Shown in pieces: positions 1 through 50,239 of a stretch of 64,000 bases of DNA. Numbering within the stretch: position 1 is the stretch's first letter; each line of letters starts with the position of its first letter. A program made the translations under genes and the position numbers. Source of the stretch: a virus. Under the pieces are notes generated by a model, which did no database searches, was not told where the DNA came from, and saw only the letters and a list, made by a program, of their open reading frames with translations. The DNA is taken from positions 1-64,000 of the IMG/VR virus record IMGVR_UViG_3300045120_000483; one strand, given 5' to 3'.

Positions 1-275
1 AAATTGATAAGGAAATTGAGGAAGATCAGGCCAATCCGCAGTATCAGACCCCACCCGGAATGCCACCCGAAGACGGGGGAGATGATCAGGGAGAGGACGG
101 TGGCTCTTCGGTAATGGTAGACCCCAATAACATGGGGAACGTACCACAAGAGCCTATGAACGGGCCGAAAGACGACAAGAAAAATGACAAAAAAGGCGGA
201 AAAGACGCCAAATCTAAGAAGAAAAGTGACAAATCATTCAAATCCGTGGCTCAGCTACTTTCCAAAAATAGTTAA
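1..275 (+). CDS. gp20: Portal protein C-terminus (5' partial)
   Basis: Frame open from base 3: IDKEIEEDQANPQY..., a typical acidic T4 portal tail; lies directly upstream of a gp67-like gene and gp21-22-23. Confidence 0.75.
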   Translation, partial: IDKEIEEDQANPQYQTPPGMPPEDGGDDQGEDGGSSVMVDPNNMGNVPQEPMNGPKDDKKNDKKGGKDAKSKKKSDKSFKSVAQLLSKNS

Positions 276-315: not shown

Positions 316-1269
316 ATGACACTCCTAGAAGCTAAAAAATCTGAATTTCCTATTGGTTCTAAAGTTGTCACAACTATGGGTGTTCGACGTAAAGGTACAA
401 TTACAAAACCTTTCCATTGGAAACAATCCGATGACGGTACCTATAAAGAACCTGGAAAGGGATATCATCCAGTTCAATGGAGTGATGGAACTAAAGGTTA
501 TCATCACAAACACCACATGAAAATTGAGGAAAACACCGATATGACCCTATTAGAAACCTTCGAAGAATTCCTATCTAACAAAGAATTTGAAACCCTTCAA
601 GAGGCATTTGACACCTTTGTCTCCGAAAATGAGATTTCTGAAGAAGATGCTGAAGCCCTTCAAGATGAGCTTGGAGACCTTGAGGACGAAGATGAGGAAG
701 TATCAGAACCGGAAGAAAATGACGATCCCATGGGCTCCCTTGTGGACCTAGCGGCTACTGAGAAGCCTTCGGAGTTTGCCGGTCTCTTTGCCGAATTGAT
801 GAAGAATAGAGTTGCAGATGCCGTCGCCGATGCCAAATCAGAAATCGCGGACGGTATCATGGAAGGTAAGTCCTGGAAGGGAGAGGAAGGGGCGCGCAAG
901 TCCTGGAAAGATAAGGACAGAGATAGCAAGCGGGCCGGTAAGAAGAAAGACCCGGAAGATGAAGCCAATGAGGAAGTCATTGGCGAAGCTATGACCCGCA
1001 AGCATTTCCAGATGGCGGCTGATACCATCAAGCAGATTGAAGACCCCAAGAAGCGCAAAGAACATGCGGAAATGCACGCAATCACCTTTGCAAAATCCAA
1101 TCCCCGTTTCGATCATCATCGCTTCTATAAGGCTTGTGGAGTAAAGGGCCTTAATGAAGGTAAGTCCGGAGACTCCGAAGATAACAAGAACAAGTTGAAT
1201 GTCTGGAGAACCCGTCAGAACAAGCGGCGGGAGAAGGAAGAAAAGAACGCAGAGAGCGGAGAAGCGTAA
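316..1269 (+). CDS. gp67: gp67-like prohead core protein carrying extra modules
   Basis: LVDLAATEKPSEFAGLFAELMKNRVADAVADAKSEIADGI resembles T4 gp67; follows portal; several [ILM]xE sites. Confidence 0.65.
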   Translation: MTLLEAKKSEFPIGSKVVTTMGVRRKGTITKPFHWKQSDDGTYKEPGKGYHPVQWSDGTKGYHHKHHMKIEENTDMTLLETFEEFLSNKEFETLQEAFDTFVSENEISEEDAEALQDELGDLEDEDEEVSEPEENDDPMGSLVDLAATEKPSEFAGLFAELMKNRVADAVADAKSEIADGIMEGKSWKGEEGARKSWKDKDRDSKRAGKKKDPEDEANEEVIGEAMTRKHFQMAADTIKQIEDPKKRKEHAEMHAITFAKSNPRFDHHRFYKACGVKGLNEGKSGDSEDNKNKLNVWRTRQNKRREKEEKNAESGEA

Positions 1270-1688
1270 TGGGAAAGTTCAAGCAGCTTCTTTCCGACAA
1301 TAAGCTATCCGAAGAAGCTTTAGAGGAAGGCCATCATCCTAATATTGAGCGTAGTAAGTTTGCCGGAAGATCAAGTCACATAACACATATAGGTTATGGT
1401 CATAATGATGTCTTTCATATCACTAAGACCAACGGTCCTAAATCCAATTGGTATCAAGCCGTAGGTCAAAAGACCAAGAAGGTTTTTACTGGTAAAGGTC
1501 TAGGAGAAATCTCAAAGAAGCTTAGGGAAGAAGTCAACGAAGCCAAGGTAAAAATTCATCCCGAATTCATGTCTGATCTACTAAAAAGGGGATGGAAAAC
1601 AGACACCATCAAAAAAGCCGACAAAGAGCGAAAACAGTTTGCGGCCGGTAAAAGAGAAATCAATCGTCTAAAGAAACAAGGTAAGTAA
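1269..1688 (+). CDS. Putative internal head protein with capsid-targeting-like leader
   Basis: N-term MGKFKQLLSD..LSEEALEEG resembles the T4 internal-protein leader MKT(F/Y)xEF..E; basic, His-rich modules. Confidence 0.55.
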   Translation: MGKFKQLLSDNKLSEEALEEGHHPNIERSKFAGRSSHITHIGYGHNDVFHITKTNGPKSNWYQAVGQKTKKVFTGKGLGEISKKLREEVNEAKVKIHPEFMSDLLKRGWKTDTIKKADKERKQFAAGKREINRLKKQGK

Positions 1689-1692
1689 AGAA

Positions 1693-2775
1693 ATGGCAAA
1701 GTCCCTGAAGGCAATCACCAAGAGCGATGAGTACGATGATGAAAGCTATTCGGGCTATAAGTCTAACTCCAAGAAATTCGCTGATCTTCATACGGTCGTA
1801 GTCCATCAGATTCCGGGACGGTCCACAGATGCTGGATTTAAGCCGGATATCAAGAAAGCTACTTATCCCCGCGCCGATGAAGATACCATTAATGAAATCA
1901 ATGACTCAGTCAAAGCCCACGAAATCCTGAAGTCCCTGGGTATCAAGAGAGGGGAGAATGTTCATAAACTTCCTCTTTCTCAACTAGGTGCTTTGGCCGA
2001 TGCTGCCCGTAAGCACGGTTATAAGAAGCCCAAGAATGCTAATGGTTCGACCGGAAGGTATTTCCATGACCATCTTCAGAAGGTTGCGGCCAAAAGCCGT
2101 CTAAACGATGAAACTGATCTAAATGAAGGTCATGAAATGTCCCATGAGGCCCATGAACTGGTGCTTTATGCAGACAATGACCATCATCTTCACCGTACCT
2201 CCGAAGAACCTATTGTCAAGAACCTTCGACGTAAACACGCCAAGGGTGTCTATGACTCTGAAAAGGCCAAAAAGCTTTGGGGTTATCATGCGGACAGAGC
2301 CGCCCAAAAGTATGCCAAAGACCATGGTTCAAAGGATCATCCTTGGCATAAGATGTTTCCTCCGTCTGCCCGCAAGCAAGCCGCTGCCCATTGGGAATCT
2401 CAGAAGCGGCATGTGAATGAAGAAGTTCAGATTGATGAACTTAAAGGTATAAATCAGGCAGTTGATCGTCTGACTAAGGAAAATTTCGATCATCCCCAGA
2501 CTGCAATATGTCACCATATTGACGTAAATGATCACAAGGCTGCGGCCAACTGGCATCAAGCCCAGGCTCTACATCATTACTCCGAACATGGTAATTTTCA
2601 GAACTATGCGGATGATACTAAATCCGCCGGGGAAAAAGATTTATTTAATGAATATCAAGGGGCGGCGAATGATCATTTAAGTCTTCATATCAAACATACC
2701 AAATTGGCAAAATTACATAATGAAAAACATCTTAGTAAGGTTCTGGGAGAAGGAAGAATAAAGAATGGCCGATAA
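1693..2775 (+). CDS. Modular His-rich prohead core/internal protein
   Basis: INE, LNE, VNE, IDE, TKE linkers separate basic modules; 33 His in 360 aa (hand count). Confidence 0.6.
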   Translation: MAKSLKAITKSDEYDDESYSGYKSNSKKFADLHTVVVHQIPGRSTDAGFKPDIKKATYPRADEDTINEINDSVKAHEILKSLGIKRGENVHKLPLSQLGALADAARKHGYKKPKNANGSTGRYFHDHLQKVAAKSRLNDETDLNEGHEMSHEAHELVLYADNDHHLHRTSEEPIVKNLRRKHAKGVYDSEKAKKLWGYHADRAAQKYAKDHGSKDHPWHKMFPPSARKQAAAHWESQKRHVNEEVQIDELKGINQAVDRLTKENFDHPQTAICHHIDVNDHKAAANWHQAQALHHYSEHGNFQNYADDTKSAGEKDLFNEYQGAANDHLSLHIKHTKLAKLHNEKHLSKVLGEGRIKNGR

Positions 2776-3511
2776 TGCAAGCGCAACAGCAGGCGATGGT
2801 TCTGTTATTGTCGGCACCGATAAAATTGGGGGTGTTGACTATCAAAGAATTAAAGCCAACTGGGGTCCGGATGGAACAATCAACGATACCGACGTTGCAT
2901 CGGGGATGTCCTTTCCGGTTCAGGTTCGTTCTGCAACCGGATTAATCCCGGTCGGAGAACCCACTGATGCCGCCAATACATCAACAGACACCACTTCCGT
3001 ATCTTTAATTAGCGTCAACAAACAAATCTCATCATCTATTCAGTCCCTGGCGGCTTCAGGAGCGGCGATTAAAACCATTGCAATGACTACCGATACGTCT
3101 CCCTATGCATCAGGTGATTTGGTTGCTGATACCCAACAGCTTGATGCGGCTTTTCGAAAGACCAATGGAACAGGCGTCCTGAACACTCTGACTATTATCG
3201 ATCAAGATGCCCAGGGTGTCGCTCTTTATGTCATGTTTCATTATTCAACAACATCAATGGGTACCGAAAATAATGCTCCCAGTATCTCTGATGCCAACCT
3301 CATCGCCGGACTTCAGGGTATCGTCGCAGTGGCTACAACCGATTATGTCACGATATCAGGCTCTAAAGTTGCTTGTATTCGAAACATTGGCCTGCCTTTG
3401 AAATCCGTCTCAGGAACAGACGATCTTTATATATCTATTGTGAATGGTACCGGGACCCCAACCTTTACGGCAACCGGTCTTTATCTTACTCTAGGTATCT
3501 TGCAGGATTAA
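2765..3511 (+). CDS. Virion structural protein (fibre/decoration-like)
   Basis: Ala/Thr/Ser/Gly-rich beta composition within late head operon. Confidence 0.5.
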   Translation: MADNASATAGDGSVIVGTDKIGGVDYQRIKANWGPDGTINDTDVASGMSFPVQVRSATGLIPVGEPTDAANTSTDTTSVSLISVNKQISSSIQSLAASGAAIKTIAMTTDTSPYASGDLVADTQQLDAAFRKTNGTGVLNTLTIIDQDAQGVALYVMFHYSTTSMGTENNAPSISDANLIAGLQGIVAVATTDYVTISGSKVACIRNIGLPLKSVSGTDDLYISIVNGTGTPTFTATGLYLTLGILQD

Positions 3512-5310
3512 TGCCTAATTTTATGCATATGCGGATGCGGCCGGTGTTTTTTCGAACAACGACACACGGCAGCGCGATTTATGATGGGTTTGCATCCACA
3601 CGCGGGAATATACCCACAAATCTAAGTGGTATCACTCATGCAAACGTTCGGGCCGGACATTATGCCCGAACTGATATCACTCAATTAAAAATTGTCCTTT
3701 TCAACTATTATGGTATTGGGGAACTAGCTCCGGGAGCGACAATGGGCGTCACCGCCAGCGTCGAATATCCCCGGGGTACATTTACTCAAATCTTATTCAG
3801 TGGGTCTTCGTCTGGAACTGTTCCGGACGGCGGAACATTGTTTTCTGATTATGTCACAATCTCAATTCCAAACGGAGAAAGGTTTTGGATCAGACTACAT
3901 CAGACATGTAGTGCTGGTTTGGTCTATATATCAACTCCTACTTATGTTGATGCCAAAGATTGGATGATGGGAGACGCCTATCAAAATTCTGCAACTGATT
4001 TGACTATGACAGGGGAGATAACCCCTGATGAAGGAACATTAGCATATTATGCAGGGGTTATAGCCCCAATGACCGCTGATTCAGTTCTTGTTCTGGGGGA
4101 TAGCAACGGCATGGGTGTTACCGATGTCCTTGATACAACAGGTAATTTAGGTAGCATCGCCCGATCAATTGGTCCGCAGTTCGGTTATTTCAACGCCTCA
4201 ATGCCGGGGGACACTGCTTCCAACTTTGTCTCTAATCATACTCAAAGAGCCCTTTTAATTCCTTATTGTACCACAGTATATGTCATTTATGGTACCAATG
4301 ATATCTTTGCTTCCGATTCCGCCGCAACTATTGAAGGTCACCTAACTTCGATTTATAGTCTTTGTAGTGGCAAAAGAGTAAAACAAACAACAATCGTTCC
4401 CCGAACAACTGACGTAGTGGATGCCTGGACTACTACGGGAAACCAGACTGTTCTGGCGGGAGAAAGTGTTCGGGCCACTCTGAACAGCGATCTCCGTTCT
4501 ACCTTCGGTCCTCCCGGAGGAATATGTGATATTGCCGCCGCCGTTGAAATTTCAACCAAATGGATTGTATCTCCTGTTATATCAACGACAGATGGCATCC
4601 ATACCAATGCTAATGGTGTGCAGCTTGTTTTAACTAGTAACGCCGTCGATCCATCCCTTACGGGGACCCCCGCAACACCAACCACTGAAACCGGTAGTGC
4701 CTGGGGTGATCACGGAACTAAAATAGATATTGCTACATTGCGGCGGGCCAATGATCTGGCTTATGCCAATACAGCCGGAAACCCCGTAACATCGGTAAGA
4801 GGGGCGACCGGTAATAGTTCTGGTTTGAGGCGGTTCGAAATAGAACTAATGGGTACCCAGCCATCAGGAATGATCCTTGGGATAATGACCGGAACCGCCG
4901 GAAACGGCGCGCCCCTTGATGATTATCCGGGGAATATATCCGATAGTTTTGCTATCATCAGTGGTGATCATTATACATTCGTATCGGGAACTATGTTCAC
5001 TGCTGTCAATTCAACAACCCTAACTTATCTTTGTGGGGATGTATTCGGATGGTATCTAGATTTTACAAATAGGTTTGCATATTTGAGTCGTAATGGTGTT
5101 TTCTGCGTTGGAGCCGGGGGTGTAACTGGCGACCCAACCTCCGGAGCAACGGGCACCGGACATGTTGCTACATGGACTAACGTAACCCCCACCCTGTATC
5201 CCGTAGTAACATTATTTGGTTACCAAACCGGTTTACCGGTCCTTCCCGTCCGACTCCGAACAGCATCATTCTTAATACCGACTGTAGGTAGTTATACGCC
5301 GTGGGGATAA
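3511..5310 (+). CDS. SGNH/GDSL hydrolase with C-terminal SPRY/lectin-like domain
   Basis: VLGDS (block I), YGTND (block III), DGIH (block V); ATG at 3511 overlaps the upstream TAA. Confidence 0.75.
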   Translation: MPNFMHMRMRPVFFRTTTHGSAIYDGFASTRGNIPTNLSGITHANVRAGHYARTDITQLKIVLFNYYGIGELAPGATMGVTASVEYPRGTFTQILFSGSSSGTVPDGGTLFSDYVTISIPNGERFWIRLHQTCSAGLVYISTPTYVDAKDWMMGDAYQNSATDLTMTGEITPDEGTLAYYAGVIAPMTADSVLVLGDSNGMGVTDVLDTTGNLGSIARSIGPQFGYFNASMPGDTASNFVSNHTQRALLIPYCTTVYVIYGTNDIFASDSAATIEGHLTSIYSLCSGKRVKQTTIVPRTTDVVDAWTTTGNQTVLAGESVRATLNSDLRSTFGPPGGICDIAAAVEISTKWIVSPVISTTDGIHTNANGVQLVLTSNAVDPSLTGTPATPTTETGSAWGDHGTKIDIATLRRANDLAYANTAGNPVTSVRGATGNSSGLRRFEIELMGTQPSGMILGIMTGTAGNGAPLDDYPGNISDSFAIISGDHYTFVSGTMFTAVNSTTLTYLCGDVFGWYLDFTNRFAYLSRNGVFCVGAGGVTGDPTSGATGTGHVATWTNVTPTLYPVVTLFGYQTGLPVLPVRLRTASFLIPTVGSYTPWG

Positions 5311-5354
5311 ATAAGTGATAAATATCAAAAAGTTAACTTTTAGGACAAATTTAC

Positions 5355-5618
5355 ATGGAATCCATTAAACCCCTTTCAAACGTCGTTACCCTGGGAGCAT
5401 CCGCCAATAACATCTACCTTTCAAAGGTAATTCGGGTGAATAATGCCAATTCTACAGTCGCGGCATTATTAACGATTACTGATGTGGATAATGGTAATGC
5501 CAACACTCAGTGTATTGTCGGACCCCTGGATAAGATCGCCGTCCTCAAAACAGCTAATTCCACCCTGATCAGTAACCTAACCTCTCTAGTTTTTGCATCT
5601 GCTGTCGGCCTAGGTTAG
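5355..5618 (+). CDS. Small virion structural protein
   Basis: Two late promoters immediately upstream (5306, 5317); beta-rich. Confidence 0.5.
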   Translation: MESIKPLSNVVTLGASANNIYLSKVIRVNNANSTVAALLTITDVDNGNANTQCIVGPLDKIAVLKTANSTLISNLTSLVFASAVGLG

Positions 5619-5624
5619 GATTGA

Positions 5625-6968
5625 ATGACTAATATCCCATTTCCAACTTATGCCTTTAAGGCTCTAGGGACAAACACCGCCCGGACTATGCCAGAACGGT
5701 TGGCAGAAGAAAAAAACGTCCTGGATTATGGGGCTGATCCTTCCAGCGCAAACGATTCCACCGTTGCAATTCAAACAGCCATGAATGATGCCGTTTCCTC
5801 CGGGGCGGGAGTATATCTTCCGGTCGGGACATATAAAGTAACGAATACCGTTGGATCAAACTCTGCCCTTCATCTTAATCCCGACGCCGATTTTGGTTTC
5901 TATATGAGAGGCGCGGGCGGTTCAGCCTCTACTATTCTCTCTCAGACATGTACGGGATTTCTTATTGATAGGTCATTGGCCACCCCCAATAATAGTATTG
6001 GTCCCCGGGTATTTGAAAATATGTGTTTTCTAAATTCGGTTGGAGGGGGATTACGTATTGGTTCAAGTAAAGGGGTGGTGGTCCGTAATTGTAGATTTTC
6101 TTGTGCGGGAACCGGCTTGACTACTGAAGATTCCCCCGGAAATTCATCGGAAAACATCGTAATAGACACCTGTAATTTTGCGGCATCTCCCGCTTACCTT
6201 ACATCTACCGGCCTTATAATGGGCGGCAGTGGATCAGTAGTCTGTTCGGATTTTAATGGTATGGGCATCGGAGTGATCCTTTACGGGAAGGGTATCTCCC
6301 TAAATGGTAATCGTTGTGAAAGATGTGATGTGGCCTTTAAACTTGGTGTTGATTCGGCAAACACCGATCAAGGATTACATGGTTTTCTTCTTACTGCCCA
6401 AGAAATGGAAGGTCTTGTCACTTTTGTTGATATTATCGGTACAATGACAGGCTTCACCATTGGACCTCTGGGTTGTACCGGTCATGATATAGGTAACTCC
6501 GGTTTGGGTGGTTTCGAAGAAAATAGTCAATATGGAGTTAGAATCAGAGCAAATAAAGCCTACTATGGTGAATTTGTAGCTACGGGCTCAACCCAATTTA
6601 TGGATATTGGGGGTATCTATATGGAGGATTATGCAGCCACCGGTCTTGGAAAGCGATCATACATAACATTCAGTTCTTGTAATCCTAGTGTTGGGTTCGG
6701 GGGAGGAGTTCCCTGGCGTATTCCAACGGCTTCGGGTTGGCCCCGTCTCATTGAATGTAGTGCTATCGATTCGTCACAAATGGCCCCTTATGGTACCCGT
6801 TATACTTATAGCGGATTGCCGACCGGAGGTGATGTATTAGAAGGAGATGAATTCGATATATCCGATGGAAATAATGGAACAATTGGAGGTACCGTTACGG
6901 CGGGAGGGGGGTCCAATCGAATTAGAGTACGATGGAACGGTACTAACTGGATTTGTCTCCCGGGATAA
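5625..6968 (+). CDS. Right-handed beta-helix (pectate-lyase-3-like) spike/depolymerase
   Basis: NVLDYGADP..NDSTVAIQTA and VYLPVGTYKV cap motifs followed by beta-helix repeats. Confidence 0.75.
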   Translation: MTNIPFPTYAFKALGTNTARTMPERLAEEKNVLDYGADPSSANDSTVAIQTAMNDAVSSGAGVYLPVGTYKVTNTVGSNSALHLNPDADFGFYMRGAGGSASTILSQTCTGFLIDRSLATPNNSIGPRVFENMCFLNSVGGGLRIGSSKGVVVRNCRFSCAGTGLTTEDSPGNSSENIVIDTCNFAASPAYLTSTGLIMGGSGSVVCSDFNGMGIGVILYGKGISLNGNRCERCDVAFKLGVDSANTDQGLHGFLLTAQEMEGLVTFVDIIGTMTGFTIGPLGCTGHDIGNSGLGGFEENSQYGVRIRANKAYYGEFVATGSTQFMDIGGIYMEDYAATGLGKRSYITFSSCNPSVGFGGGVPWRIPTASGWPRLIECSAIDSSQMAPYGTRYTYSGLPTGGDVLEGDEFDISDGNNGTIGGTVTAGGGSNRIRVRWNGTNWICLPG

Positions 6969-6971
6969 TAG

Positions 6972-9467
6972 ATGACAAATCCCTTTTCCTCTTATGCTTT
7001 TCCTTCGGCCACCGGGTTAGCTAATCGCAAAATGCCCTACCGTCTGCTTGATACTATCAACGTCAAGGATTTTGGAGCGGTTGGAGATGGGGTGACTGAT
7101 GATTGGGCCGCCATTATGGATGCCCTAAACTGGAATTCTATTTTAGTAACAGCCGCGCAAAAGGCCTATTCCGGAACTGTTCGAATTACTGCTTTGTCGT
7201 GGAACGCGGGGGCAGCAACCGCAACAACAGGCATTCCCCATGGCCTGACGACCGGTGATGAAATAATCCATTTCTTTACATTTTCAACGAACGCTGATTG
7301 GACCGGGGACTTCGTTGTAACTGTTATTGATTCTACAACCTTTACCTATCCCCTACCTACAAATCCAGGTCCCGCCAGCGCGGATATAGGATGCTTTACC
7401 GCTAAAATTCTAAGCGCCACATGGTCGGGAGATGTTGTAACAGTAAACTTTGGGGCTCCCCATCGATTGATCAGCGGGCTCTCCGTCAATATGTTTGGCT
7501 TCTCCTTCGGTGATCTCACTGGTAAAGTCATTACTGTCACAGGTCCCAGACAATTGACATTTCCACTTACGGGCTCCGGAGCCGTCACTCTTCACCCCTT
7601 TTCATGGTTAGCTCCTCCTGCCAAGCTCACAGTCGTGAATTGGCCGGGATTTCCCCCCACCTTCCCATACGCAATATATGGTATGTTTATGGGAGAATAT
7701 TATCCGCCGTGTCTTGCCGGTAGTTATTTTCACAGCGGGGCTGATGTAACCGGGAATGTTATAACTTTCAACTCCCCCTTTCACTGGAATGAAATTGAGG
7801 CAGGAGATAATATTCGACTAGTTACAGCCCTAACTGGTAAGGTTTTTTTTCCGGCCGGTACTTACTATGTCAGTAAGCAGATTCAATTACCAATGGTAGG
7901 GTCTTCCGGTGTTTTCTATGGTACCGGTAACTCCATCATACGCGGCTCATTCCCTGATTTTATCTTCTCAATCAATCAAAAAGCGGCCGGGGCCGGGCCC
8001 GTTCGATTTGATAATCTAACTTTTATCAATGACGATATCAATGGGGGAGGGATGCGATTTGTTAACAACAGCGGATTTTTCTCTGGATGTAAATTTACGG
8101 CCGGACATATCTGTCTTACCCTAGCAAGCACAGATACCCGAAATTCGGCGGCGTTTGACGTTGTAGTAACGGGATGTATGTTCTTTGCCACCCCCGGTTC
8201 GACCGGCTCTTGTGGATTGGCGGCTACGGCCAATAATGGGGAGTATAATGGAAATTATTTTGAAGGATTATACTCTGGCATCCGATGTCAAAATTTCTGT
8301 CAAAATATAGATGGTAGTAAATTTGTTAATTGTGGCACCGGTATAGCATTTGGATATGATCCTGAAGGGATACGTAGCTTCATGAGTTCGTTTTCTACTA
8401 GAGGAAATTATTTCCAAAATTGCGGGGCCGCTATAGATGGTTATAATTATGGGTCATCACGCGCCGAAGGTAATTATATCGTAGGGGGAGCCAACTCAGT
8501 TTATGGATTTTTTGGACAAAACTTCGCGTCTTCACTATTGCGGGGGTTGCATGTTACCGGACAATTTTCTAACACAGCCGTCTTTCCAGCCCCTACTCTA
8601 AGATATGATAGTAGTTTGTTGATATTTCGATCTGTCGGGGGCGAAAATTCCGGTTCCGGAACAGTATGGACAATGCCGATAAGTCAATCCTCAGTCTATA
8701 TGGATAATTGTAATTCACCTTTTATTATAACTTATGATAGGTTAAATGGAAGACGAATAACAAGCGCAACCTATGATTCTGGAACAGGTGTTGCTACCAT
8801 AACAACAGATTCAGACCATCACTTCGAAAATCATAGTCAAAATATCTCAGTAACAAATGTCCTAGTTGGGGGTTCAGCAAATAATAGCTATAATGGTATA
8901 TATGAGCCCATAACCCGTTCAGGAAATACTTTTTCCTATCATGTAAACTTTGCCCCCGGGACTGCTACCGCAAACACTGGAGCTATGTGTGGCGCTCTTC
9001 GGATAGGAACAGGGGGACCAATTAAAACTATGTCCTGGAATACCGGGACTGTGACAGTAGAAACATGGGCCCCCCACGGTATAGCTGATTATGGGACGGC
9101 CACTATTATTGCACAAGTGGGAGGTAATACCAGTAACGGTTATAACGGCACTTTTGGAGTAAGGGTGACCGATCTTACCCATTTTACTTATTCTGTTGTC
9201 TCTGACCCCGGCACAGTGGACCCTTTAAGCTTGACTACTAGTATGCCATCCTTTCAACATAGCCCCTCAACTTATTATCTTAACACATTCGATACAAGAG
9301 GAACAACATTTGATTCCCGGGAAGGTCATTCCAGGATCAATATTAGTGACGGACAAAAGTACACGGGGGGCTTCGCCTCTATTGGGGATTCGATAAAAGG
9401 CGGGGGAAGTCCAGGTCAGCATATGAGTGTCGTCTGGACCAAAAATGGCTTTATTCGAAGAGGATAG
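6972..9467 (+). CDS. Beta-helix spike protein with repeated beta-barrel inserts
   Basis: INVKDFGAVGDGVTDDWAAI and VFFPAGTYYV motifs; four T..PH(G/R/H)-type repeats. Confidence 0.75.
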   Translation: MTNPFSSYAFPSATGLANRKMPYRLLDTINVKDFGAVGDGVTDDWAAIMDALNWNSILVTAAQKAYSGTVRITALSWNAGAATATTGIPHGLTTGDEIIHFFTFSTNADWTGDFVVTVIDSTTFTYPLPTNPGPASADIGCFTAKILSATWSGDVVTVNFGAPHRLISGLSVNMFGFSFGDLTGKVITVTGPRQLTFPLTGSGAVTLHPFSWLAPPAKLTVVNWPGFPPTFPYAIYGMFMGEYYPPCLAGSYFHSGADVTGNVITFNSPFHWNEIEAGDNIRLVTALTGKVFFPAGTYYVSKQIQLPMVGSSGVFYGTGNSIIRGSFPDFIFSINQKAAGAGPVRFDNLTFINDDINGGGMRFVNNSGFFSGCKFTAGHICLTLASTDTRNSAAFDVVVTGCMFFATPGSTGSCGLAATANNGEYNGNYFEGLYSGIRCQNFCQNIDGSKFVNCGTGIAFGYDPEGIRSFMSSFSTRGNYFQNCGAAIDGYNYGSSRAEGNYIVGGANSVYGFFGQNFASSLLRGLHVTGQFSNTAVFPAPTLRYDSSLLIFRSVGGENSGSGTVWTMPISQSSVYMDNCNSPFIITYDRLNGRRITSATYDSGTGVATITTDSDHHFENHSQNISVTNVLVGGSANNSYNGIYEPITRSGNTFSYHVNFAPGTATANTGAMCGALRIGTGGPIKTMSWNTGTVTVETWAPHGIADYGTATIIAQVGGNTSNGYNGTFGVRVTDLTHFTYSVVSDPGTVDPLSLTTSMPSFQHSPSTYYLNTFDTRGTTFDSREGHSRINISDGQKYTGGFASIGDSIKGGGSPGQHMSVVWTKNGFIRRG

Positions 9468-9514: not shown

Positions 9515-10186
9515 ATGAAACTTTTAACAGAACTTACCCATGAAGTTGAATACCTGAAAGAAGGTAAGGAAGGCTCCCCCCAAAAGCTTTATATCCGGGG
9601 ACCTTTTGCAGAAGCTGAAGTCGGTAACCGCAACAAGCGTTGGTATCCTCTTCCTATTCTGGAACGGGAATTTAATCGTTATCAGACCGAAAACATCAGT
9701 AAAAACAACGCTTTGGGCGAACTGAATCATCCGGCCGGTCCCAATATCAACCTGGATAGGGTTGCCATCAAGATCACTGAGGCCAAACGGGATGGTAACA
9801 AGTTCATTGGCAAGGCCTTAGTCACTGAAACCCCCATGGGGGATATCGTGAAAGGTTTGATTAACTCCGGTGTTCAGTTGGGGGTTTCTACCCGGGCCCT
9901 GGGTTCTTTAAAATACAATTCCCGGACTGAACTGAATGAGGTCCAGGACGATCTTAAACTTCTGGCCGTTGATGTCGTCTCCGATCCCTCCTGCCCATCA
10001 GCTTATGTGAGCGGGCTCCATGAAGGGGCTGAATGGATTTTCAATCCTGCCCTGGGGTCCTGGGTCATTAATACAGTCGAAACCCACAAAAAGGTCATAA
10101 AAGAGGTTTCCCGAAAGAAAATTACCCAGATTCAGACCCGATTATTTGAAGAATTCCTCTCCTCTCTCAAAAATCCTAAATCATAA
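9515..10186 (+). CDS. gp21: Prohead protease
   Basis: ALGELNHP, GVSTRALGSL, DVVSDPS motifs of T4 gp21. Confidence 0.95.
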   Translation: MKLLTELTHEVEYLKEGKEGSPQKLYIRGPFAEAEVGNRNKRWYPLPILEREFNRYQTENISKNNALGELNHPAGPNINLDRVAIKITEAKRDGNKFIGKALVTETPMGDIVKGLINSGVQLGVSTRALGSLKYNSRTELNEVQDDLKLLAVDVVSDPSCPSAYVSGLHEGAEWIFNPALGSWVINTVETHKKVIKEVSRKKITQIQTRLFEEFLSSLKNPKS

Positions 10187-10219: not shown

Positions 10220-11368
10220 ATGGATAAAGAACTAATCAAGAAATTCGACAAGTTCATTGCTGAAAACGAACACGATTCCCTGGAAAACGCCGTTTCAGCG
10301 TTCGTTCAGACAGAGAAGTTGGATGAAACTGTCAAAGACGCTTTGATCGATCATATCAACACTTCCCTTGAAGAGGATGAAGTTGATGAATCAGCAGGCT
10401 CTGAGACCCTTCATGCCGGTTCGAAAGCCTATGACGATCCCAAGACCAAATTTGAGGTCATTACCGCCGCTATCGGGGCCATGGCCGCCGCAAAAGGCGA
10501 AGATTTGCCATTTTGGCAGGAAGCCCTAAAGCAGTCCATGGAAAACGGTAAAGGTCAGGGTATTCCGGACGGAGCAGCAGAGAAGAATAAGGCTACTATC
10601 AAGCCTCATGCTTCCGCCGCCGTAAAGGAAGCCACAAAGGAAGACCTGGGTAAGATTCTAGCGGAAGCAGAAGGTTTGACCCCCGAATTCAAGGCCAGGG
10701 CATCCACGCTCTTTGAAGCGGCTCTGGAAGCCCGAATTGTCCTGGAATCCACCCGTCTGGAAAGCGAATTTATTCAAAAGCTGGAAGAGGCCTCAGAGGG
10801 TATCCGGGCTGAATTGGTAGAAGGTCTGGATAAGTATCTGGATTGGGCCAAGGACGAATGGATGAAGGAAAATGAAGTCGCCATTCAATCTTCCCTAAAG
10901 TCTGAAATTGCGGAAGACGTAATCAACGGCCTTCGGGACCTTTTGACTGAAAATAACATTCATTTGAATGAGGAAGAAGTCGAAGTAGTCGATGCCATGG
11001 CGGCGAAGATCGATGAACTAGAATCCGCCCTGAATGATGCTATTTCTGCCAATGCAGAACTTCAAGAAGCTGTTGAAAACACTAAGAAAACTGAAGTAGT
11101 TAAGAAATTATCAGAGGGTTTAACCCAAATTGAAGCCGAAAAGCTTCAGACCCTTTCCGAAAACGTGGATTATGAAACTCTGGAAGACTTTTCTACCAAG
11201 GTTAAGACAATCAAGGAATCTCAGTTTGTGAAGGCCGCCAAGACTTCAAAGGTCGGGGAAGCTCTAGAACAGATTGACGAAGAGCGTCTTCCAACCAATC
11301 CAGAGACCTTTGTATCACCAGAAATGAAAGCTTACACACAAGCGATCAGTCGCAACATTGTAAAGTAA
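10220..11368 (+). CDS. gp22: Prohead scaffold/core protein
   Basis: LTPEFKARASTLFEAA and LDKYLDWAKDEWMKENEVAI; lies between gp21 and gp23. Confidence 0.93.
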   Translation: MDKELIKKFDKFIAENEHDSLENAVSAFVQTEKLDETVKDALIDHINTSLEEDEVDESAGSETLHAGSKAYDDPKTKFEVITAAIGAMAAAKGEDLPFWQEALKQSMENGKGQGIPDGAAEKNKATIKPHASAAVKEATKEDLGKILAEAEGLTPEFKARASTLFEAALEARIVLESTRLESEFIQKLEEASEGIRAELVEGLDKYLDWAKDEWMKENEVAIQSSLKSEIAEDVINGLRDLLTENNIHLNEEEVEVVDAMAAKIDELESALNDAISANAELQEAVENTKKTEVVKKLSEGLTQIEAEKLQTLSENVDYETLEDFSTKVKTIKESQFVKAAKTSKVGEALEQIDEERLPTNPETFVSPEMKAYTQAISRNIVK

Positions 11369-11375
11369 TACTTTC

Positions 11376-11383
11376 TATAAATA
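11376..11383 (+). promoter_or_regulatory. Late promoter TATAAATA
   Basis: Perfect T4 late consensus before gp23. Confidence 0.85.
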
Positions 11384-11424: not shown

Positions 11425-12837
11425 ATGACGAACAAGAAATATACTAATGACGAATTGATCACAAAGTGGATGCCGGTTCTAGAACATGCCGACCTTCCAC
11501 CGATTAAAGATTATCATCGTCGGGTGATTACAGCGACGTTGTTGGAAAACACCAGAGATGCCCTGGAAGTTACCAATCGCTATCAGCGTTTGACCCTTTT
11601 GGGAGAAGCGGCTCCGACCAACTCCATGGGAGCATCCTCTTCAACAGCCGGGGACGGTTCTCTTGATACGTTTGATCCGATCCTGATCTCCCTAATCCGA
11701 AGAGCCATGCCGAACCTTGTGGCTTACGATATCTGCGGCGTTCAGCAAATGAACGGTCCCACCGGACTAATCTTTGCTCTCCGCACCCGTTATGCAACTC
11801 AGTCTGGAGCGGAAGCTTATTATCTGGAAGCTAATTCCGGTCACTCCGCCAGAGGGGGTGCCAACGCCACCGCTGTGCAGGCTGGTTATTCCGCAGCTAA
11901 CGTTGTGGGTGGTCAGGCCGTAAACATCAATGCCAACTCCACGATTACAGGTATTCCGGGCGTTTCCAACAACGTCGGCGGAAACACCTATAACTTTGCG
12001 GGTGGTATGAGCCGAACTATTTCTGAAGGTTTGGGTGGTAATACCACTGCGATCTTCCCAGAAATGGCATTCTCCATTGAGAAGGTTTCCGTCACTGCGA
12101 TGGAAAGAGCTTTGAAGGCCGAATGGTCCATGGAAATGGCTCAGGACCTTAAGGCAATTCATGGTCTTGATGCCGAATCCCTTCTGTCCAATCTTCTTCA
12201 GACAGAATTGCTTGCGGAAATCAACAGAGAAGTTGTTCGAACCGTTAACGTAACGGCCGTCTCAGGTTCTCAGGTTGACGTTACCTCCGCCGGTACTTTC
12301 GACCTTGACGTTGATGCCAACGGTCGATGGATGATTGAAAAGTTCAAGGGCTTGCATTTCCAGCTTCAGCGTGAAGCCAACCAGATTGCAAAGGACACCC
12401 GTCGCGGGCGGGGCAACCTGATCATCTGTAGTTCTGACGTAGCTTCGGCTCTTCAGCAGACCGGTCAGTTGGACTACAAGACTGCCCTTACTGGTAACAG
12501 CCTGGAAGTCGATGATACTGGCAATACCTTTGTCGGTGTTTTGAACGGCCAATTTAAAGTTTTCATTGACCCTTACGCGATTGGTGCAAACTATATGACG
12601 GTCGGTTATAAGGGTAAGGACGCAATGGACGCCGGACTATTCTATTGTCCATACGTTCCGCTTCAGTTGTTGAAGGGTCAGAACCCCGATACGTTCCAAC
12701 CCAAACTGGGCTTTAAGACAAGATACGGTATGGTAGCGAATCCATTCTCTGATGGTTCAACTGCGGCCGGTACCGGTGCTCTTACTCAGGACTCTAACGT
12801 TTATTATCGGAGAACCATTGTAACACACATCGGCTAA
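11425..12837 (+). CDS. gp23: Major capsid protein
   Basis: DICGVQQMNGPTGLIFALR, AQDLKAIHGLDAE, FQPKLGFKTRYG. Confidence 0.98.
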   Translation: MTNKKYTNDELITKWMPVLEHADLPPIKDYHRRVITATLLENTRDALEVTNRYQRLTLLGEAAPTNSMGASSSTAGDGSLDTFDPILISLIRRAMPNLVAYDICGVQQMNGPTGLIFALRTRYATQSGAEAYYLEANSGHSARGGANATAVQAGYSAANVVGGQAVNINANSTITGIPGVSNNVGGNTYNFAGGMSRTISEGLGGNTTAIFPEMAFSIEKVSVTAMERALKAEWSMEMAQDLKAIHGLDAESLLSNLLQTELLAEINREVVRTVNVTAVSGSQVDVTSAGTFDLDVDANGRWMIEKFKGLHFQLQREANQIAKDTRRGRGNLIICSSDVASALQQTGQLDYKTALTGNSLEVDDTGNTFVGVLNGQFKVFIDPYAIGANYMTVGYKGKDAMDAGLFYCPYVPLQLLKGQNPDTFQPKLGFKTRYGMVANPFSDGSTAAGTGALTQDSNVYYRRTIVTHIG

Positions 12838-12953: not shown

Positions 12954-14321
12954 ATGACATTAAATGAAGTACGATCATTGATTCATGAAGGAAAATCTAT
13001 CTCCGAAATTGAAAAAATCATCAATGTCTCTAGATACCATATTGAACAACACATCAAACAACACAAAATCCCCTATCAAAAACAATCTACAACGGTCTCA
13101 GTTCTTTGCCCCGATCTCCCACACCTCAGGCAACTTATTGAGGTTGAAGGTAAACGATATCAAGACTGTGCAGAAATCTTTGGTGTTTCCCATTACAAAA
13201 TATGGAGATGGTGTGAAGCCAATAACATAAAAACCACTCACCAACCCCATATCAAGAAAGAAGCTCCTCCCATCGATACTCTCAAATCAGAGTATGAATC
13301 TGGTCTGACCTTTTTAGACCTGGGAAAAAAATATAATGTTTCAAATGTCACCGTTCGAAAATGGTTCAAGGAACATAACATTCCAATCCGCACTCATTCG
13401 GAAACTCAGAAAATTGGAAGAGTAAAGCTGGTCGAACGAACTGGTCAGACCTATTTTCCACCTGTTGATGGTTTCCAGCCTAAATGGACAAGTGCTGGGG
13501 AAACAGAAGTAAAAACCTTTCTGAATAATTTAGGGTTTGATTTCAAGAAAAGACGACTGAATAATGGTAAAATGGAAGTCGATCTTCTAGATGAAAATCT
13601 TAAGATTGGAGTGGAGTTTTGTGGTCTTCAATACCATCATGAAGGGCCCCCAAACTTTCGTACCCGAACCTACCATTATGAAAAGTGGAAAAATTGTCAG
13701 GATCAGGGAATCCGTCTGTTCACAATCTTTGATCATGAATGGGAAAAGAGAAAACCACAAATTCAAAATTTCCTGAAGTCCTCTTTAGGGAAATTCGAAC
13801 GTCGGTTCTATGCCAAAGACCTAGAAGTACGGACTTGTGAAGACACCAGCTTTCTTACAAATTATCACATCCAAGGTGCTCCGAATGTCCAAGAAATGTT
13901 CGGACTCTATACCAAGGAAGAAGAGTTAATGGGCGTAGTTGCCTTTGGTAGACACCCCCGTATTTCCACAATGACTGTGCTAAACAGGCTTTGCTTCAAA
14001 CCAGAAGTTCAAATTGTAGGGGGAGCCTCTAAACTAATTCAAAACGCCCTTACCCGAATGAACACACCCGAAATAATCACTTGGTCGGATAATCGCTGGT
14101 CAACCGGTGGAGTATATCAAAACTGTGGTTTTACCAAAGAGAAAGACCTAGGACCCGACTACTTCTATGTCAAAAACGGGGACAAAGTAAAATCCAAACA
14201 ATCCATGAAAAAGGGATTGATTGGATGTCCTCCAGATATCACTGAAAGGGAGTTTCTATTCAATCAAGGTTGGTACAGAGTTTGGGATTGTGGAAAAATT
14301 CGGTGGCGTTTGATCAAGTAA
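12954..14321 (+). mobile_element. Hef-like homing endonuclease
   Basis: N-terminal HTH repeats; EVD..IGVEFCGLQYH nuclease motif; GGASKL, WSDNRWSTG, VWDCG C-terminal motifs. Confidence 0.8.
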
Positions 14322-44657: not shown

Positions 44658-46403
44658 TTAAACTCCTGATTTCTTTTGTGTATTTATCATTTTGGATTCT
44701 ACATTTAGGGTACTAGCCGACTTCCCCGTCTTATGGACATGGGCAATGGCATCATCCTGATTCTTAAAGACTTTGACCGGTCCCCCTCCGCCCGGAACGG
44801 CATGATACTTACCCTTCCGAAGATGAACATGACCAATCAGAAGACGACCCTTTCGGATACCTAGCTCATTGAGAGTTTCTTCCTTAGTCAGAAGGGGATG
44901 ATGAAGACCATAGGTTCCATCGCGGCCTTTGGTAAGCTTTCCCCCTGATACCGGTTTGGGGCGGGCTCTTTTGACAATCGGCCCATGACCTTTCAACTTA
45001 TCCCGGGCATCCTTATAGGTCTTGTACTGTTGGGCGTGATCTTTCATCTCCGCTTCAGCATCTCTTTTTTCCTTGGCGGCGTCCGCATAACGACCCAGAT
45101 GATAGGCCCTCTGAGCCTGATTATGATGATAATCAGCAACTTTCTTTAGCTTATGATATTCATTTCCAGCCCTTCCGGTTGCCGCCCGGGCCTTATCACT
45201 AGCAGCTTCATACTTGTCTTCATGATGATTTTCGATATCACTTAATCGGCCCTTGCCGGTTAACTCCGAAAGGACATCCTCCTTCACATACTTCATTGCT
45301 TTTTCGTCCCATCTCTTACCCGGGAGTTTAGGCATAGCAAACGGGGGCTTGTCTTCTTTCTTATCATCTAACCGTTGGTTTTTGAAAGCATTATGAGCGG
45401 GCGTTACCTTCAGAAATAATCTCCGACCTTCTTCTAGCTCTTCCTTATTCAACCTCATGACATTCTGAGAATTCTGCTTCTGATGAGCCATCAACTTCAT
45501 CAGTTTCTTACTGATAACCGGAGGCTTCTTTGGGGTGATCCAGGAAGGCTTCTTCAGAAGACTTTCATCCACTGCTTCATCAAAATATCTTTTCTCCAGG
45601 TACTTCTTAATCACCGGTAGATGTTCCTTTAGTTTTTTAACTTCATGGTCGGGTGCTTTGTGAATATAATTGGCAAGATGTTTTTGAGCAAAAGTATGGT
45701 GTAAGGATGCAGCTTCCAAAGCCGCCTTATGCTCTGACTCCTTTTTCTGACGGGCCCTATCACTCATTTTTTTAGTATTAAGTTCATGGTGAATATACTT
45801 GGCAAGACCATGCATCTCTTCGGATTGGGTGTTATGTTTCTCAAATTCTTTGACATGTTCATCGGACGTATAGCTACCCATCTTCTTGGAGTTTAGAGCG
45901 GACTCCGAAAGCCGGTAGTGTTCCATGACCCGCTCAACGACGGTTTTCTTTTTGTCAAGAAGGACTTCCGAATCCTTTGCGGTCGGGTCAAGGATCACCG
46001 GGGTCTTACCTCCCAACTTAACCTTATCATCCTTTTTGGCTTCTTCTTCTTTCATCGTATTCTTTGTCATCTTTCGTAAGGCTAAGTTCATGGAATTCTT
46101 TCGTTTATTTAGCTTTTGGGCGGCATATTCCGGGTTGTCCTTCAGGTTCTTATTCCGCAGACCGGCATGAACGATATAGGGACCCAACCGCTGATTTGAC
46201 ATTTCATTGATATTTTCGGCTGTTTTATGAGTTTTCACCAACCATTCAACGGCATCTTTTTTGGATGGATGATCCCTTTTTAAATTCCAATGAATAGACC
46301 GGGCATCCCAACCTTTTTTTCTAGGTTCAAAAATATTTCCTATATGCTTTCCATTGTATCTGACATTATGGACCGACCCGTCTTGTACTATCTTTACACT
46401 CAT
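44658..46403 (-). CDS. Modular His/Lys-rich internal head polyprotein
   Basis: INE, MKE, LSE, VDE, LEE, VKE, LSE, LNE linkers between basic modules. Confidence 0.6.
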   Translation of the reverse strand: MSVKIVQDGSVHNVRYNGKHIGNIFEPRKKGWDARSIHWNLKRDHPSKKDAVEWLVKTHKTAENINEMSNQRLGPYIVHAGLRNKNLKDNPEYAAQKLNKRKNSMNLALRKMTKNTMKEEEAKKDDKVKLGGKTPVILDPTAKDSEVLLDKKKTVVERVMEHYRLSESALNSKKMGSYTSDEHVKEFEKHNTQSEEMHGLAKYIHHELNTKKMSDRARQKKESEHKAALEAASLHHTFAQKHLANYIHKAPDHEVKKLKEHLPVIKKYLEKRYFDEAVDESLLKKPSWITPKKPPVISKKLMKLMAHQKQNSQNVMRLNKEELEEGRRLFLKVTPAHNAFKNQRLDDKKEDKPPFAMPKLPGKRWDEKAMKYVKEDVLSELTGKGRLSDIENHHEDKYEAASDKARAATGRAGNEYHKLKKVADYHHNQAQRAYHLGRYADAAKEKRDAEAEMKDHAQQYKTYKDARDKLKGHGPIVKRARPKPVSGGKLTKGRDGTYGLHHPLLTKEETLNELGIRKGRLLIGHVHLRKGKYHAVPGGGGPVKVFKNQDDAIAHVHKTGKSASTLNVESKMINTQKKSGV

Positions 46404-46939
46404 TGTTTCTTAATCAACTTTCGTATTGTTTTCAAGGTCTTAGAGCCTTGTCCGGGGGTGTCGTTTCGGTAATTCTTTAGAAGTTCGGGACTACCGGTCA
46501 TGCGACGGGAGGACATCATTTCCATCTCTGTTAAGTCCCGATCAATATCCGCCCCGGCCAAAAAGCTATTGACCCGGTTGAATGCCACATTTTCAGGTGT
46601 TAAATGGGAGGGACAATCTTGATTCAGACCCCTATTATAAACTTCCATAATGATTTCAAGAGGATAACCATGCTTATCCGCCTTGGCTTTTAGATTATCC
46701 AGGGCTTCCCGACGCATGTTATCCGCAAGCAAATCAACCCGCAGTCGCGAATACAACTGAGGGTCCTTCAGGACATATTTTACAAGAGTTTCAAGGACCT
46801 CCGCCGCAAGGTCCCGGGTATAGGAATTGTTAAAAGATGAGCGGGGGTTGGTCAGAACTTGCCGATAATAGGCAATTCGGGAAATATTTTTTGCAAGTCC
46901 AGCCTGAAGTAATGCCGTTATTTTACCGTCTTGTGCCAT
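46400..46939 (-). CDS. Putative head protein with DUF5824-like module
   Basis: LKAKA...IMEVYNRG..AFNRVNSF; YRNDTPGQ; late promoter CATAAATA at 46984-46991. Confidence 0.55.
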   Translation of the reverse strand: MAQDGKITALLQAGLAKNISRIAYYRQVLTNPRSSFNNSYTRDLAAEVLETLVKYVLKDPQLYSRLRVDLLADNMRREALDNLKAKADKHGYPLEIIMEVYNRGLNQDCPSHLTPENVAFNRVNSFLAGADIDRDLTEMEMMSSRRMTGSPELLKNYRNDTPGQGSKTLKTIRKLIKKQ

Positions 46940-48394: not shown

Positions 48395-50227
48395 TTACTT
48401 CTTTCCTTTGGCCTGTTTCAGAGCAGTTCGCATTGTGACAAACATCCTCTTGGCCTTATTGTCATCTAGGTTAGCCGGGGCATTCTTTCGGAAAGCTGGG
48501 AAGTCATTAGCCGCTACGGCCCGACGCTGTTTACTGGCGGACACTCCCCCAATTTCCTTGCTAGCCGGGTCTCTGTCCCCTCCGGAGACAATATTAATCT
48601 TTGAAAAATGGAACAATTTACCGGGCTCCGGTCCATTATATTTCGCCACAAGCTTCTTATAGTCCGCAACCCGGTCGGAACCCGCCATAATCGTCAAATG
48701 TTTAACCCCCGAATGATGCATATGCTTCAACTGGGCGACAAGAGTGGCTTTATCGGGACCTGCGACCGCAACATCAGCCTTCGGAAACATACTTTTAAGC
48801 CATTTCAGTTTATCGGCCGGGGACAAGGGGTTTTTCTTATCTCCCTGAGAGCCTGAGGCGACCACTGATAACTTTCCGCCGGTTTTGGTAGCTATCCTAC
48901 CCCCCTGATCAATTAATTGCCTGTGGCCCTCTGTGGGCGGATTAAAACGGCCCCAAACCAGGACGGTCGGGTTATCGGATGGATTGACCTTCGCATTCCA
49001 GTCAAAATTAGCCGCAGAGAAATGATTTCGATCCACCAGCTTGACGGGCTCATGATTTAGAGAAGCAACAAACCCCTCTGGTTTTGACTTGTTTCCTAGG
49101 ATAGTCTCATCGTAAGGAGACTTGTGAGATAAAGTATCCACAAGCACGTTTTTAGCATTTTGAAGGTGTTTATGAGCCATAAACAGAGATTTGAAAGTAT
49201 CTTCATTCCCCAAAACATTCTTAATCTCCGTATTCAAGTTAGATTTCAAGTTAGATTTACCTGAATCGGTCTTCAGGTCCTCCATTTTACTATTCATTTG
49301 CTTTCGAAGGAAGCTGATATAGCCTGAAACTGTATTTTCTTTCCGATTCTTTACCGCATCATTGATATAGGCCAGAAGGGTCTTTTCATGGTTCCGAACC
49401 GGCTCATGATCCGGAATTTTAGAAAAGACCTTTCGGGCCTTGGTCAGAGCATCACTGAACTTCTTCTGATCCCCGGGCGGATAGTAAAAATTCCCCCCCA
49501 CCTTGGTATTGAACAAATGGACATCTGGAGAATCCTTAAAAGCCCCATGATCAAATTTATATTTGGCTTTTAGAGTTCCATCCATTTCGGGTTCATAAGT
49601 GGTATGGGGGGCAATCCCGATCTTCGAATCAGCTATTTTCCTGCCCTCCGCTGAGCCCTTCGGAACATGATAGGAAAGGGTATTGGGAGAGAATGAATAA
49701 TGGGAATTGTTAGCAACACCAACATCCTCCGCCGTGTACATCAGATCACCCTGATAAACGCCTTCCTTGGGGGTTATCCCCTTCAGGTGCTTCAGAGCAT
49801 TCTTGAGCTTCTTAACCAGACCCGGGCTCTTTCCATGATTGGCCTCAATATCCTTATCCGAAAAGTTGATTTTTGGGCTCTTGTTGAAAAAAGCCTTGGT
49901 GCCTACAAAGAACTTTTTAGTTTCGGGGTGATGTCCCCAGACCAAAGAAGGGCTTCCGTCCATCTTTGTCGTCAAATTAAACTTATCGTTCTTCTTGCCG
50001 GTCAGAAAATTATGAGTATGGGTCAGAAATTCTGAAGCCTTACTCAGACCATCGGGGTGACGGATTAGCAGGTCTTCAGCATGATCTAAGTGCTGGTTTT
50101 TGGAAGATTTCTTCTCTTCCCTGGCTCCTTCGGTGAGAAGTTCGGCATCCTCAAAGATAGCCGAAAAATCCGGATCGACTAGAACGCCCTCCGGGAATAA
50201 ATGGGTGATTTCATGTAATAATTTCAT
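48395..50227 (-). CDS. Fusion of ligase-like (DUF6267-type) domain and HIGH-motif cytidylyltransferase-like domain
   Basis: TKMDGS, QGDL, PEGFV, VKLVD; then GRFNPPTEGH, KNPLS, AGSDR, SASK; late promoter at 50232-50239. Confidence 0.75.
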   Translation of the reverse strand: MKLLHEITHLFPEGVLVDPDFSAIFEDAELLTEGAREEKKSSKNQHLDHAEDLLIRHPDGLSKASEFLTHTHNFLTGKKNDKFNLTTKMDGSPSLVWGHHPETKKFFVGTKAFFNKSPKINFSDKDIEANHGKSPGLVKKLKNALKHLKGITPKEGVYQGDLMYTAEDVGVANNSHYSFSPNTLSYHVPKGSAEGRKIADSKIGIAPHTTYEPEMDGTLKAKYKFDHGAFKDSPDVHLFNTKVGGNFYYPPGDQKKFSDALTKARKVFSKIPDHEPVRNHEKTLLAYINDAVKNRKENTVSGYISFLRKQMNSKMEDLKTDSGKSNLKSNLNTEIKNVLGNEDTFKSLFMAHKHLQNAKNVLVDTLSHKSPYDETILGNKSKPEGFVASLNHEPVKLVDRNHFSAANFDWNAKVNPSDNPTVLVWGRFNPPTEGHRQLIDQGGRIATKTGGKLSVVASGSQGDKKNPLSPADKLKWLKSMFPKADVAVAGPDKATLVAQLKHMHHSGVKHLTIMAGSDRVADYKKLVAKYNGPEPGKLFHFSKINIVSGGDRDPASKEIGGVSASKQRRAVAANDFPAFRKNAPANLDDNKAKRMFVTMRTALKQAKGKK

Positions 50228-50239
50228 CAAATATTTATC

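Follow-up and report, generated by a model that had tools for sequence, protein, structure and literature searches.

Candidate head-internal polyproteins with exchangeable modules in an uncultured T4-type phage

Capsid-delivered proteins and the genes A, B and C

Phage T4, with its capsid targeting and gp21 processing, is the classic example of a virus that delivers proteins along with its DNA; one such cargo, IPI*, is known to counter restriction. The internal proteins of T4, together with Alt, carry a capsid-targeting sequence that is cut by gp21 (PMC9026906), each cargo protein being encoded by a separate gene with a 10–20-residue N-terminal targeting sequence and a single cut (PMC9026906, PMC5694885). 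Replacement of the P1 Glu by Asp reportedly blocks processing in T4 (PMC9026906). In the giant phages phiKZ, 201phi2-1 and SPN3US, inner-body and ejection proteins are processed by gp175/gp245 (PMC5694885, PMC10052503). Polyvalent proteins combine many unrelated domains in one polypeptide, are encoded near virion genes and are predicted to be packaged, co-delivered with the DNA and proteolytically separated; they carry recognizable enzymatic or anti-defense domains and an embedded zincin-like MPTase for self-processing (PMC5512222). Here we describe three genes, A (316-1269, 317 aa), B (1269-1688, 139 aa) and C (1693-2775, 360 aa), of an uncultured myovirus of the T4 superfamily. They lie in the window, the whole stretch of 64,000 nucleotides that was analyzed, which is the first 64 kb of IMG/VR virus record IMGVR_UViG_3300045120_000483 (104,881 bp, ~59% complete). 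Coordinates are those of the window, on the plus strand unless marked (-).

Sequence comparison supports A–C as strings of independently mobile modules joined at the T4-type prohead-protease motif. We consider it probable, on the same kind of evidence, that they are head-internal precursor polyproteins, loaded into the head and cut there by a gp21-type protease; we have less confidence in the delivery of the modules and in their role in the host. The format is best read as a variation on the T4 internal-protein system, in which multi-module chains with a site at each joint would be new; a full-text literature search found no description of it. A–C resemble the T4 internal proteins, gp67 and gp68 in belonging to a T4-type head module with a Peptidase_S77 protease, in occupying the gene 67/68 slot and in a predicted (L/I)-x-E cleavage site conserved at gp23. 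As with the T4 internal proteins, their content varies between related phages, and their products would be small, basic and expected to stay with the DNA. The locus differs from T4 in that several unrelated modules share one chain, a site stands at every joint and C lacks a T4-like targeting sequence.

The likeness to the giant phages lies in a prohead protease that cuts head-internal proteins, sometimes at multiple sites, the mature parts being kept and ejected with the DNA (PMC5694885, PMC10052503). The giant phages differ in their motif, (S/A/G)-x-E, and in the long propeptides borne by large proteins, in place of chains of reshuffled 50-100-aa modules; [AGST]xE is not enriched at the M4 joints described below, and no sequence relationship of the giant-phage ejection proteins to A–C was found. 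Unlike polyvalent proteins, A–C have no embedded peptidase and no Pfam domain, and their processing would be carried out in trans by the prohead protease. Indeed, Pfam at E<=0.01 returned no family in A, B or C; in ten relatives of 450-947 aa it gave only two sub-threshold DUF matches (DUF2018 and DUF3715), neither of them LPD nor MPTase. Searches of Pfam, PHROGs and ESM Atlas with the modules and these ten long relatives gave no named family.

Module architecture of A, B and C

When cut at [ILVM]xE, A–C yield six basic fragments of 48-98 aa (pI 9.4-10.5), a near-neutral, His-rich fragment of 104 aa and acidic spacers. An earlier note on this DNA had described three genes of basic, His-rich modules with [ILVM]xE in acidic linkers. 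The open reading frames (ORFs), every site that it listed and the 33 His of 360 residues in C are present. The fragments C1-68 and C250-353 are near-neutral.

Gene A begins with MTLLE/ (the slash marks the predicted cut; 5 residues, unlike a T4 targeting sequence), followed by a basic 67-aa module for which no homologue was found, MTLLE again, an acidic helical stretch, a gp67-like segment, a module termed MTRKHF (MTRKHF..NPRFD..ACG) and a basic tail. The MTRKHF module (residues 225-281, 988..1158) has IGE/ before it and LNE/ after it; fragments A6-72 and A225-281 are basic and the central residues 73-183 acidic. A carries 10 [ILVM]xE sites against 6.8 expected from shuffles (P = 0.11). The gp67-like segment (residues 157-220, 784..975) aligns weakly with residues 19-75 of T4 gp67 in pairwise BLASTP (E 0.002), with IME/G placed on T4 LIE/G, and residues 156-216 match phrog_1064 'prohead' weakly (E 9.5e-4); no similarity of A to T4 gp68 was found. 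A likeness of A to the gp22 N-terminus was rejected (E 0.17). The two MTLLE copies (316-330 and 541-555), which flank the 67-aa module, use different codons and each lie ~8-12 nt past GAGGAA; the second could serve as an internal start, or could mark the ancestral start, ahead of which a module was added.

Gene B (pI 10) consists of a short leader with LSE and LEE at residues 13-20, unlike a T4 targeting sequence, a basic His-containing module (residues 21-88) and a basic C-terminal module (residues 92-139), and has 5 [ILVM]xE sites against 2.1 expected (P = 0.035); the fragments B21-80 and B92-139 are basic. No homologue of the same size was found among 5.8 billion proteins.

Gene C is composed of a low-confidence N-terminal part, the modules M3 and M4 and a His-rich antiparallel helical hairpin. 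M3 (residues 69-145, 1897..2127; the YKKPKNANGS..RYF module, with the motif YKKPKNANGSTGRYF) is a basic fragment, M4 (residues 146-243, 2128..2421; ELVLYADND...KLWGYHADRAAQ...PWHKMF) a basic helical bundle, and the hairpin (residues 250-353, 2440..2751) is near-neutral, carries 13 His and ends at LGE/. With 9.2% His, C stands at the top of the 47 window ORFs of >=150 aa (median 2.0%). AlphaFold2 predicts three confident helical domains (residues 63-135, 148-242 and 279-352) with low-confidence segments between them, and 4/5 of the [ILVM]xE sites (143-145, 241-243, 247-249 and 351-353) fall in or at these low-pLDDT linkers; the 5 sites compare with 3.7 expected from shuffles (P = 0.31).

A HMMER search with C against 1.84 billion cluster representatives returned 2318 proteins at E<=1e-3. 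Of the 150 matches listed, almost every one aligns to C through M4 only, and among these M4 occurs at any position within proteins of 89-947 aa. Folded alone, M4 reaches a pLDDT of 94.7. It has no Pfam family and no fold match in the PDB by Foldseek or VIA-align, the best Z of 5.5 being meaningless for a helical bundle, and its matches in BFVD (TM 0.82-0.87) are to uncharacterized proteins only. M4 is an abundant family (2318 clusters at 50% identity) with a confident fold and without a name, a Pfam model or a solved relative. The whole-C model gave, against PDB representatives, only generic coiled-coil matches on the C-terminal hairpin, the M3 fold being barely covered. In tblastn searches of 50,697 phage records, A and B had no match and C a single one, a gene of Brevundimonas jumbo phage Gurke.

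The protease motif marks the module joints across homologues

The site grammar was scored over 147 M4 instances. The [ILVM]xE rate reaches 0.13 per residue in the five residues before M4 and 0.08 just after it, against a background of 0.02, and is near zero inside the module. A site is found upstream in 103/119 instances and downstream in 90/105. The motif is enriched ~6-fold at both M4 edges (z = 8.8 upstream and 7.9 downstream versus composition-preserving shuffles of the 20-residue flanks). At the joints, acidic residues lead into a consensus in which P3 is L/I/V, P2 frequently N, P1 E and P1' S/E/G/A. The control motifs [ILVM]xD, [ILVM]E and [AGST]xE are not enriched at the M4 joints, the last giving z values of -1.5 and -4.0.

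Eighty viral loci with M4 were sorted by context: 25 have a T4 portal, gp21 or gp23 nearby and 34 are small stand-alone M4 genes in non-T4 contigs. M4 is flanked by the motif upstream in 22/22 and downstream in 20/22 instances from T4-type loci, whereas the corresponding numbers for the small stand-alone genes are 5/28 and 4/29, indicating that the motif belongs to the polyprotein and gp21 context and not to the M4 domain. In two contigs whose polyprotein gene has no head genes close to it, a phrog_207 protease is nonetheless encoded at another position.

Modules are gained, lost and reordered at the sites

Comparison of the homologues reveals rearrangement of the modules. Two-module orders are M4-M3 in 9 proteins, M3-M4 in 8, M4-M4 in 5 and MTRKHF-M4 in 2, with MTRKHF-M4-M3 and M3-M3-M3-M4 in 1 protein each; M3 stands before or after M4 in 21 proteins. 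The MTRKHF block is invariant in 14 proteins and always starts 1-2 residues after [LIM]xE. It is the only module that 13 metagenome homologues of A have in common with A, their remaining modules being shuffled in order, each behind an E-x-[LI]-D-E-type joint. The same module is fused to M4 in P0050, L059 and P0127. The nearest homologue of C, P0016 (64% identity), differs from it by two whole-module indels exactly at sites: an insert of ~75 residues between VNE/ and ITE/G and an extra C-terminal module after VLGE/. The C250-353 hairpin is common to C and P0016 and partly present in L059, P0086, P0118 and P0131. Viral and metagenome scans for the P0016 locus turned up only M4-level relatives.

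About 20 divergent T4-like contigs, with gp23 43-59% identical to that of the window, carry 1-3 such genes of 229-762 aa in the gap between portal and gp21. At the level of sequence, the modules thus have independent homologues and their order varies among relatives, in keeping with the earlier note.

In Stenotrophomonas phage DLP6, a cultured relative, the portal-gp21 gap holds a basic hypothetical protein of 261 aa with 6.5% His (L001:11130-11915, AAY80_014); beside it are an acidic ORF of 53 aa that is gp67-like and one of 85 aa that bears the annotation 'holin'. In contig L020, the phrog_455 and cytidyltransferase genes found at 48395-50230 of the window recur (5897-8781) directly upstream of a 604-aa M4-bearing polyprotein; in some relatives the polyprotein gene thus stands beside nucleotide-sugar-type genes and not in the head cluster.

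Head-gene context and the prohead protease

Genes A, B and C are tightly packed and co-directional. They follow the portal gene immediately and share their orientation with gp21, gp22 and gp23. The C-terminal tail of a gp20-like portal (3..275), truncated by the contig end, shares 46% identity (E 1.6e-16) with the final part of the L005 portal ORF and also matches L069; the 90-aa piece alone has no PHROG or Pfam match. The placement of the three genes between portal and gp21, as the earlier note put it, holds only loosely, as five other genes (2765-9467) intervene between C and gp21. T4 genes 67 and 68 occupy the same slot after the portal, which together with the weak gp67-like stretch of A points to incorporation into the prohead core.

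The block of protease, scaffold and capsid genes starts 6.7 kb downstream of A–C. The gp21-like prohead protease (9515..10186) belongs to PF03420 Peptidase_S77 (124.8 bits, cut-off 27) and phrog_207 (E 2.3e-64) and is presumed to be the processing enzyme for A–C. It is followed by a gp22-like scaffold (10220..11368; PF25623 T4_CASP, E 4.7e-56, and PHROGs), itself carrying 21 [ILVM]xE sites against 13.2 expected, and by a gp23-like major capsid protein (11425..12837; PF07068, 454.6 bits, and PHROGs), with an exact TATAAATA late-promoter match ahead of it at 11376-11383. The LGE/A site that had been pointed out in gp23 (residues 59-62, nt 11599-11610) is present and aligns with LTE/A of T4, the maturation cleavage site there, and with LGE/A of DLP6; it is a conserved site with a predicted cut, and its alignment with T4 suggests that the two proteases obey one rule. 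Among cultured phages, DLP6 has the nearest capsid protein (59.7% identity), and megablast against the 50,697 phage records found no DNA-level relative of the window.

Stand-alone modules and leader arrays

Several modules had been thought to resemble small stand-alone phage genes, and the resemblance was borne out for M3 and M4. M3 constitutes a 71-aa gene of phage Gurke (GURKE_04640), among small hypothetical genes near a primase, and is also found as a small ORF in L090 and at the C-terminus of a 159-aa ORF in L091. None of these copies lies in a head cluster, and M3 is the only module with such copies. M4 stands alone in at least 50 clusters of 68-172 aa. At L034:9899-10312 and ~30 similar loci it forms a protein of 134-137 aa whose N-terminus (MPLVTSKNKAEHD..) is conserved; the L034 contig (35 kb, 98% complete) is podovirus-like and lacks a T4-type protease, and the M4 start overlaps the portal stop, with the scaffold and major capsid genes next. 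The MTRKHF module, on the other hand, was seen only inside larger proteins or leader-tagged genes, and the one stand-alone homologue of the B module (NIERS..IGY) is itself leader-tagged. The proposal that the phage captures early-effector domains found no support, the stand-alone M4 genes lying directly after the portal in the head cluster and not in early regions.

The leader-tagged genes form arrays in four high-GC contigs (L079:9335-13534, L025:9310-14843, L015:2439-7972 and L075:9519-13660). Each array comprises at least 10 consecutive small genes (56-205 aa) that all open with M(A)KDAKGHGS(D/E/N)xRGG, often followed 15-40 residues further on by AHQ(S/T)GV(D/Q)QVG(Q/K) and then by unrelated domains, among them M4, tandem MTRKHF-like domains (in L015 and L025), B-like domains and others. 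Residues 20-88 of B match a leader-tagged gene of 134 aa (L079:11392-11796, E 2.4e-13), and the C-terminal B motif GKREINRLK recurs in L015 and L025. The L079 array lies ~3 kb upstream of terS, terL and the portal gene. The arrays look like a system of leaders for capsid targeting, in a lineage other than T4: they mirror the T4 capsid-targeting sequence on diverse internal proteins (PMC9026906), here on the module types of the window. No HK97-type protease (PF04586) was found in the leader-array or podovirus-like contigs, which are mostly incomplete.

Proposed mechanism and alternative explanations

From the anatomy of A–C, the mobility of their modules, the site grammar and the link to gp21-type phages, we infer incorporation, cleavage, retention, ejection and host action along the following lines. 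A–C would be made late, along with the head genes, and would co-assemble into the prohead core, A via its gp67-like segment, B and C perhaps via N-terminal leaders. The Peptidase_S77 protease would then cut them after the Glu of [L/I/V]-x-E in the linkers, freeing some seven to nine small helical domains (48-104 aa), His-rich and for the most part basic, along with short acidic spacer peptides. As internal proteins, the folded basic domains would remain with the DNA in the head and probably exit with it at infection. DNA binding or charge neutralization in the head, or the shielding of incoming DNA from host defenses, are the likeliest roles of the modules. If this is true, the cargo can be read from the sequence, cutting at [LIV]xE yielding candidate cargo units. 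The joints also offer a design principle, taken from nature, for loading several cargoes into T4-type capsids. Should the chaining of many small modules be routine in uncultured T4-type phages, the set of proteins that environmental phages deliver by capsid would far exceed, in size and combinatorial variety, what cultured models suggest.

Several observations weigh against head-internal, protease-cut precursors of this kind. In A–C alone, the bare [ILVM]xE count is not clearly above chance and so cannot carry the claim; as far as sequence comparison goes, the pattern reaches significance only when homologues are compared. These homologues share ancestry, and one clade dominates the small-ORF class, so that the counts are not independent; likewise, the lack of sites within M4 counts as a single observation. 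In C, the INE at 66-68 lies at the first turn of the predicted M3 helix, and no site precedes residue 66, so that a T4-like capsid-targeting sequence of 10-20 residues is missing. The gp67 similarity of A is weak (E about 1e-3), and upstream of A there is only a 7/8 late-promoter match (GATAAATA, 287-294), late transcription thus being predicted only. The modules match no known effector, anti-defense or enzyme family in sequence and fold searches. Finally, podovirus-like contigs without a T4-type protease keep an M4 gene between portal and scaffold, a placement no less suited to a part in assembly or structure than to a delivered effector.

A broader reading, which we put forward only tentatively, is that environmental tailed phages share a large pool of small basic helical domains, delivered by the capsid as a combinatorial cocktail and acting in the host, for example in anti-defense. 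The assembly machinery would dictate one of three formats, namely protease-jointed polyproteins in T4-type phages, leader-sharing gene arrays, and single genes behind the portal in podovirus-like phages, and the joints and leaders would together make up a 'load and release' grammar that holds generally for capsid cargo.

The main rival explanation is that A–C are extra proteins of the prohead core or scaffold that give the prohead its shape, chopped at [LIV]xE only so that the pieces leave before the DNA enters and nothing functional is delivered. The gene 67/68 slot and the weak gp67-like segment would suit such disposable filler, as would the motif-rich gp22 scaffold (21 sites versus 13.2 expected), the M4 genes between portal and scaffold in other phages and the precedent of T4 gp22, gp67 and gp68, whose short cleavage fragments leave the capsid (PMC5694885). 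We nevertheless regard filler as unlikely. The sites cluster between well-folded, conserved domains of 60-100 aa and spare them, and the rapid shuffling, gain and loss of modules among relatives would be unusual for an essential, shape-determining core. In addition, M3 occurs alone away from head genes, and the domains are basic, like the internal proteins that T4 retains.

It is also conceivable, if improbable, that A–C enter the head whole as multidomain internal or DNA-condensing proteins, their [LIV]xE stretches being flexible linkers that resemble protease sites incidentally. The near-chance count in A–C alone fits this view; some [LIV]xE is expected in Glu-rich linkers, and a basic, His-rich composition suits DNA binding. 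Yet shuffled linkers give far fewer [ILVM]xE (z 8-9) and the control motifs are not enriched, M4 lacks the motif where there is no T4-type protease or polyprotein context, and the module indels fall exactly at sites, all of which speaks against this view. That A–C are absent from the virion and act in the cytoplasm, as regulators or in host takeover, with their genes next to the head genes by chance, is very improbable: the modules have no structural family match and the genes for M3 alone sit away from head clusters, surrounded by small unknown genes, but the portal-to-protease position is kept in about 20 divergent T4-like contigs, stand-alone M4 lies between portal and scaffold, the L079 leader array sits just upstream of terS, terL and portal, and the joints follow the protease-motif grammar.

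Other genes of the record

The five genes that separate C from gp21 are an acidic 248-aa protein nearly devoid of Lys and Arg, an 87-aa ORF, a GDSL/SGNH-type esterase (phrog_8480, E 1e-43) and two pectate-lyase-like β-helix proteins of the tailspike type; receptor-binding or depolymerase genes are unusual at the portal-gp21 position. On the opposite strand, a gene at 44658..46403 (-) encodes a basic protein of 581 aa (6.2% His, 21% Lys+Arg) with 13 [ILVM]xE sites against 8.8 expected, a marginal excess (P 0.075); it is preceded by a 179-aa gene (44658-46939 overall) and may be a second polyprotein locus. The 581-aa protein has no Pfam or PHROG family and no homologue among the fetched loci. 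Directly 3' of the major capsid gene lies a 455-aa HNH/homing-endonuclease-like gene (12954-14321; phrog_3339, E 4.8e-67). Outside the window, at 67650-67844 of the record, an 81-aa frame shares 40% identity with gp23 residues 373-439 and could represent either a piece of a gp24-like vertex protein or a capsid-gene remnant.

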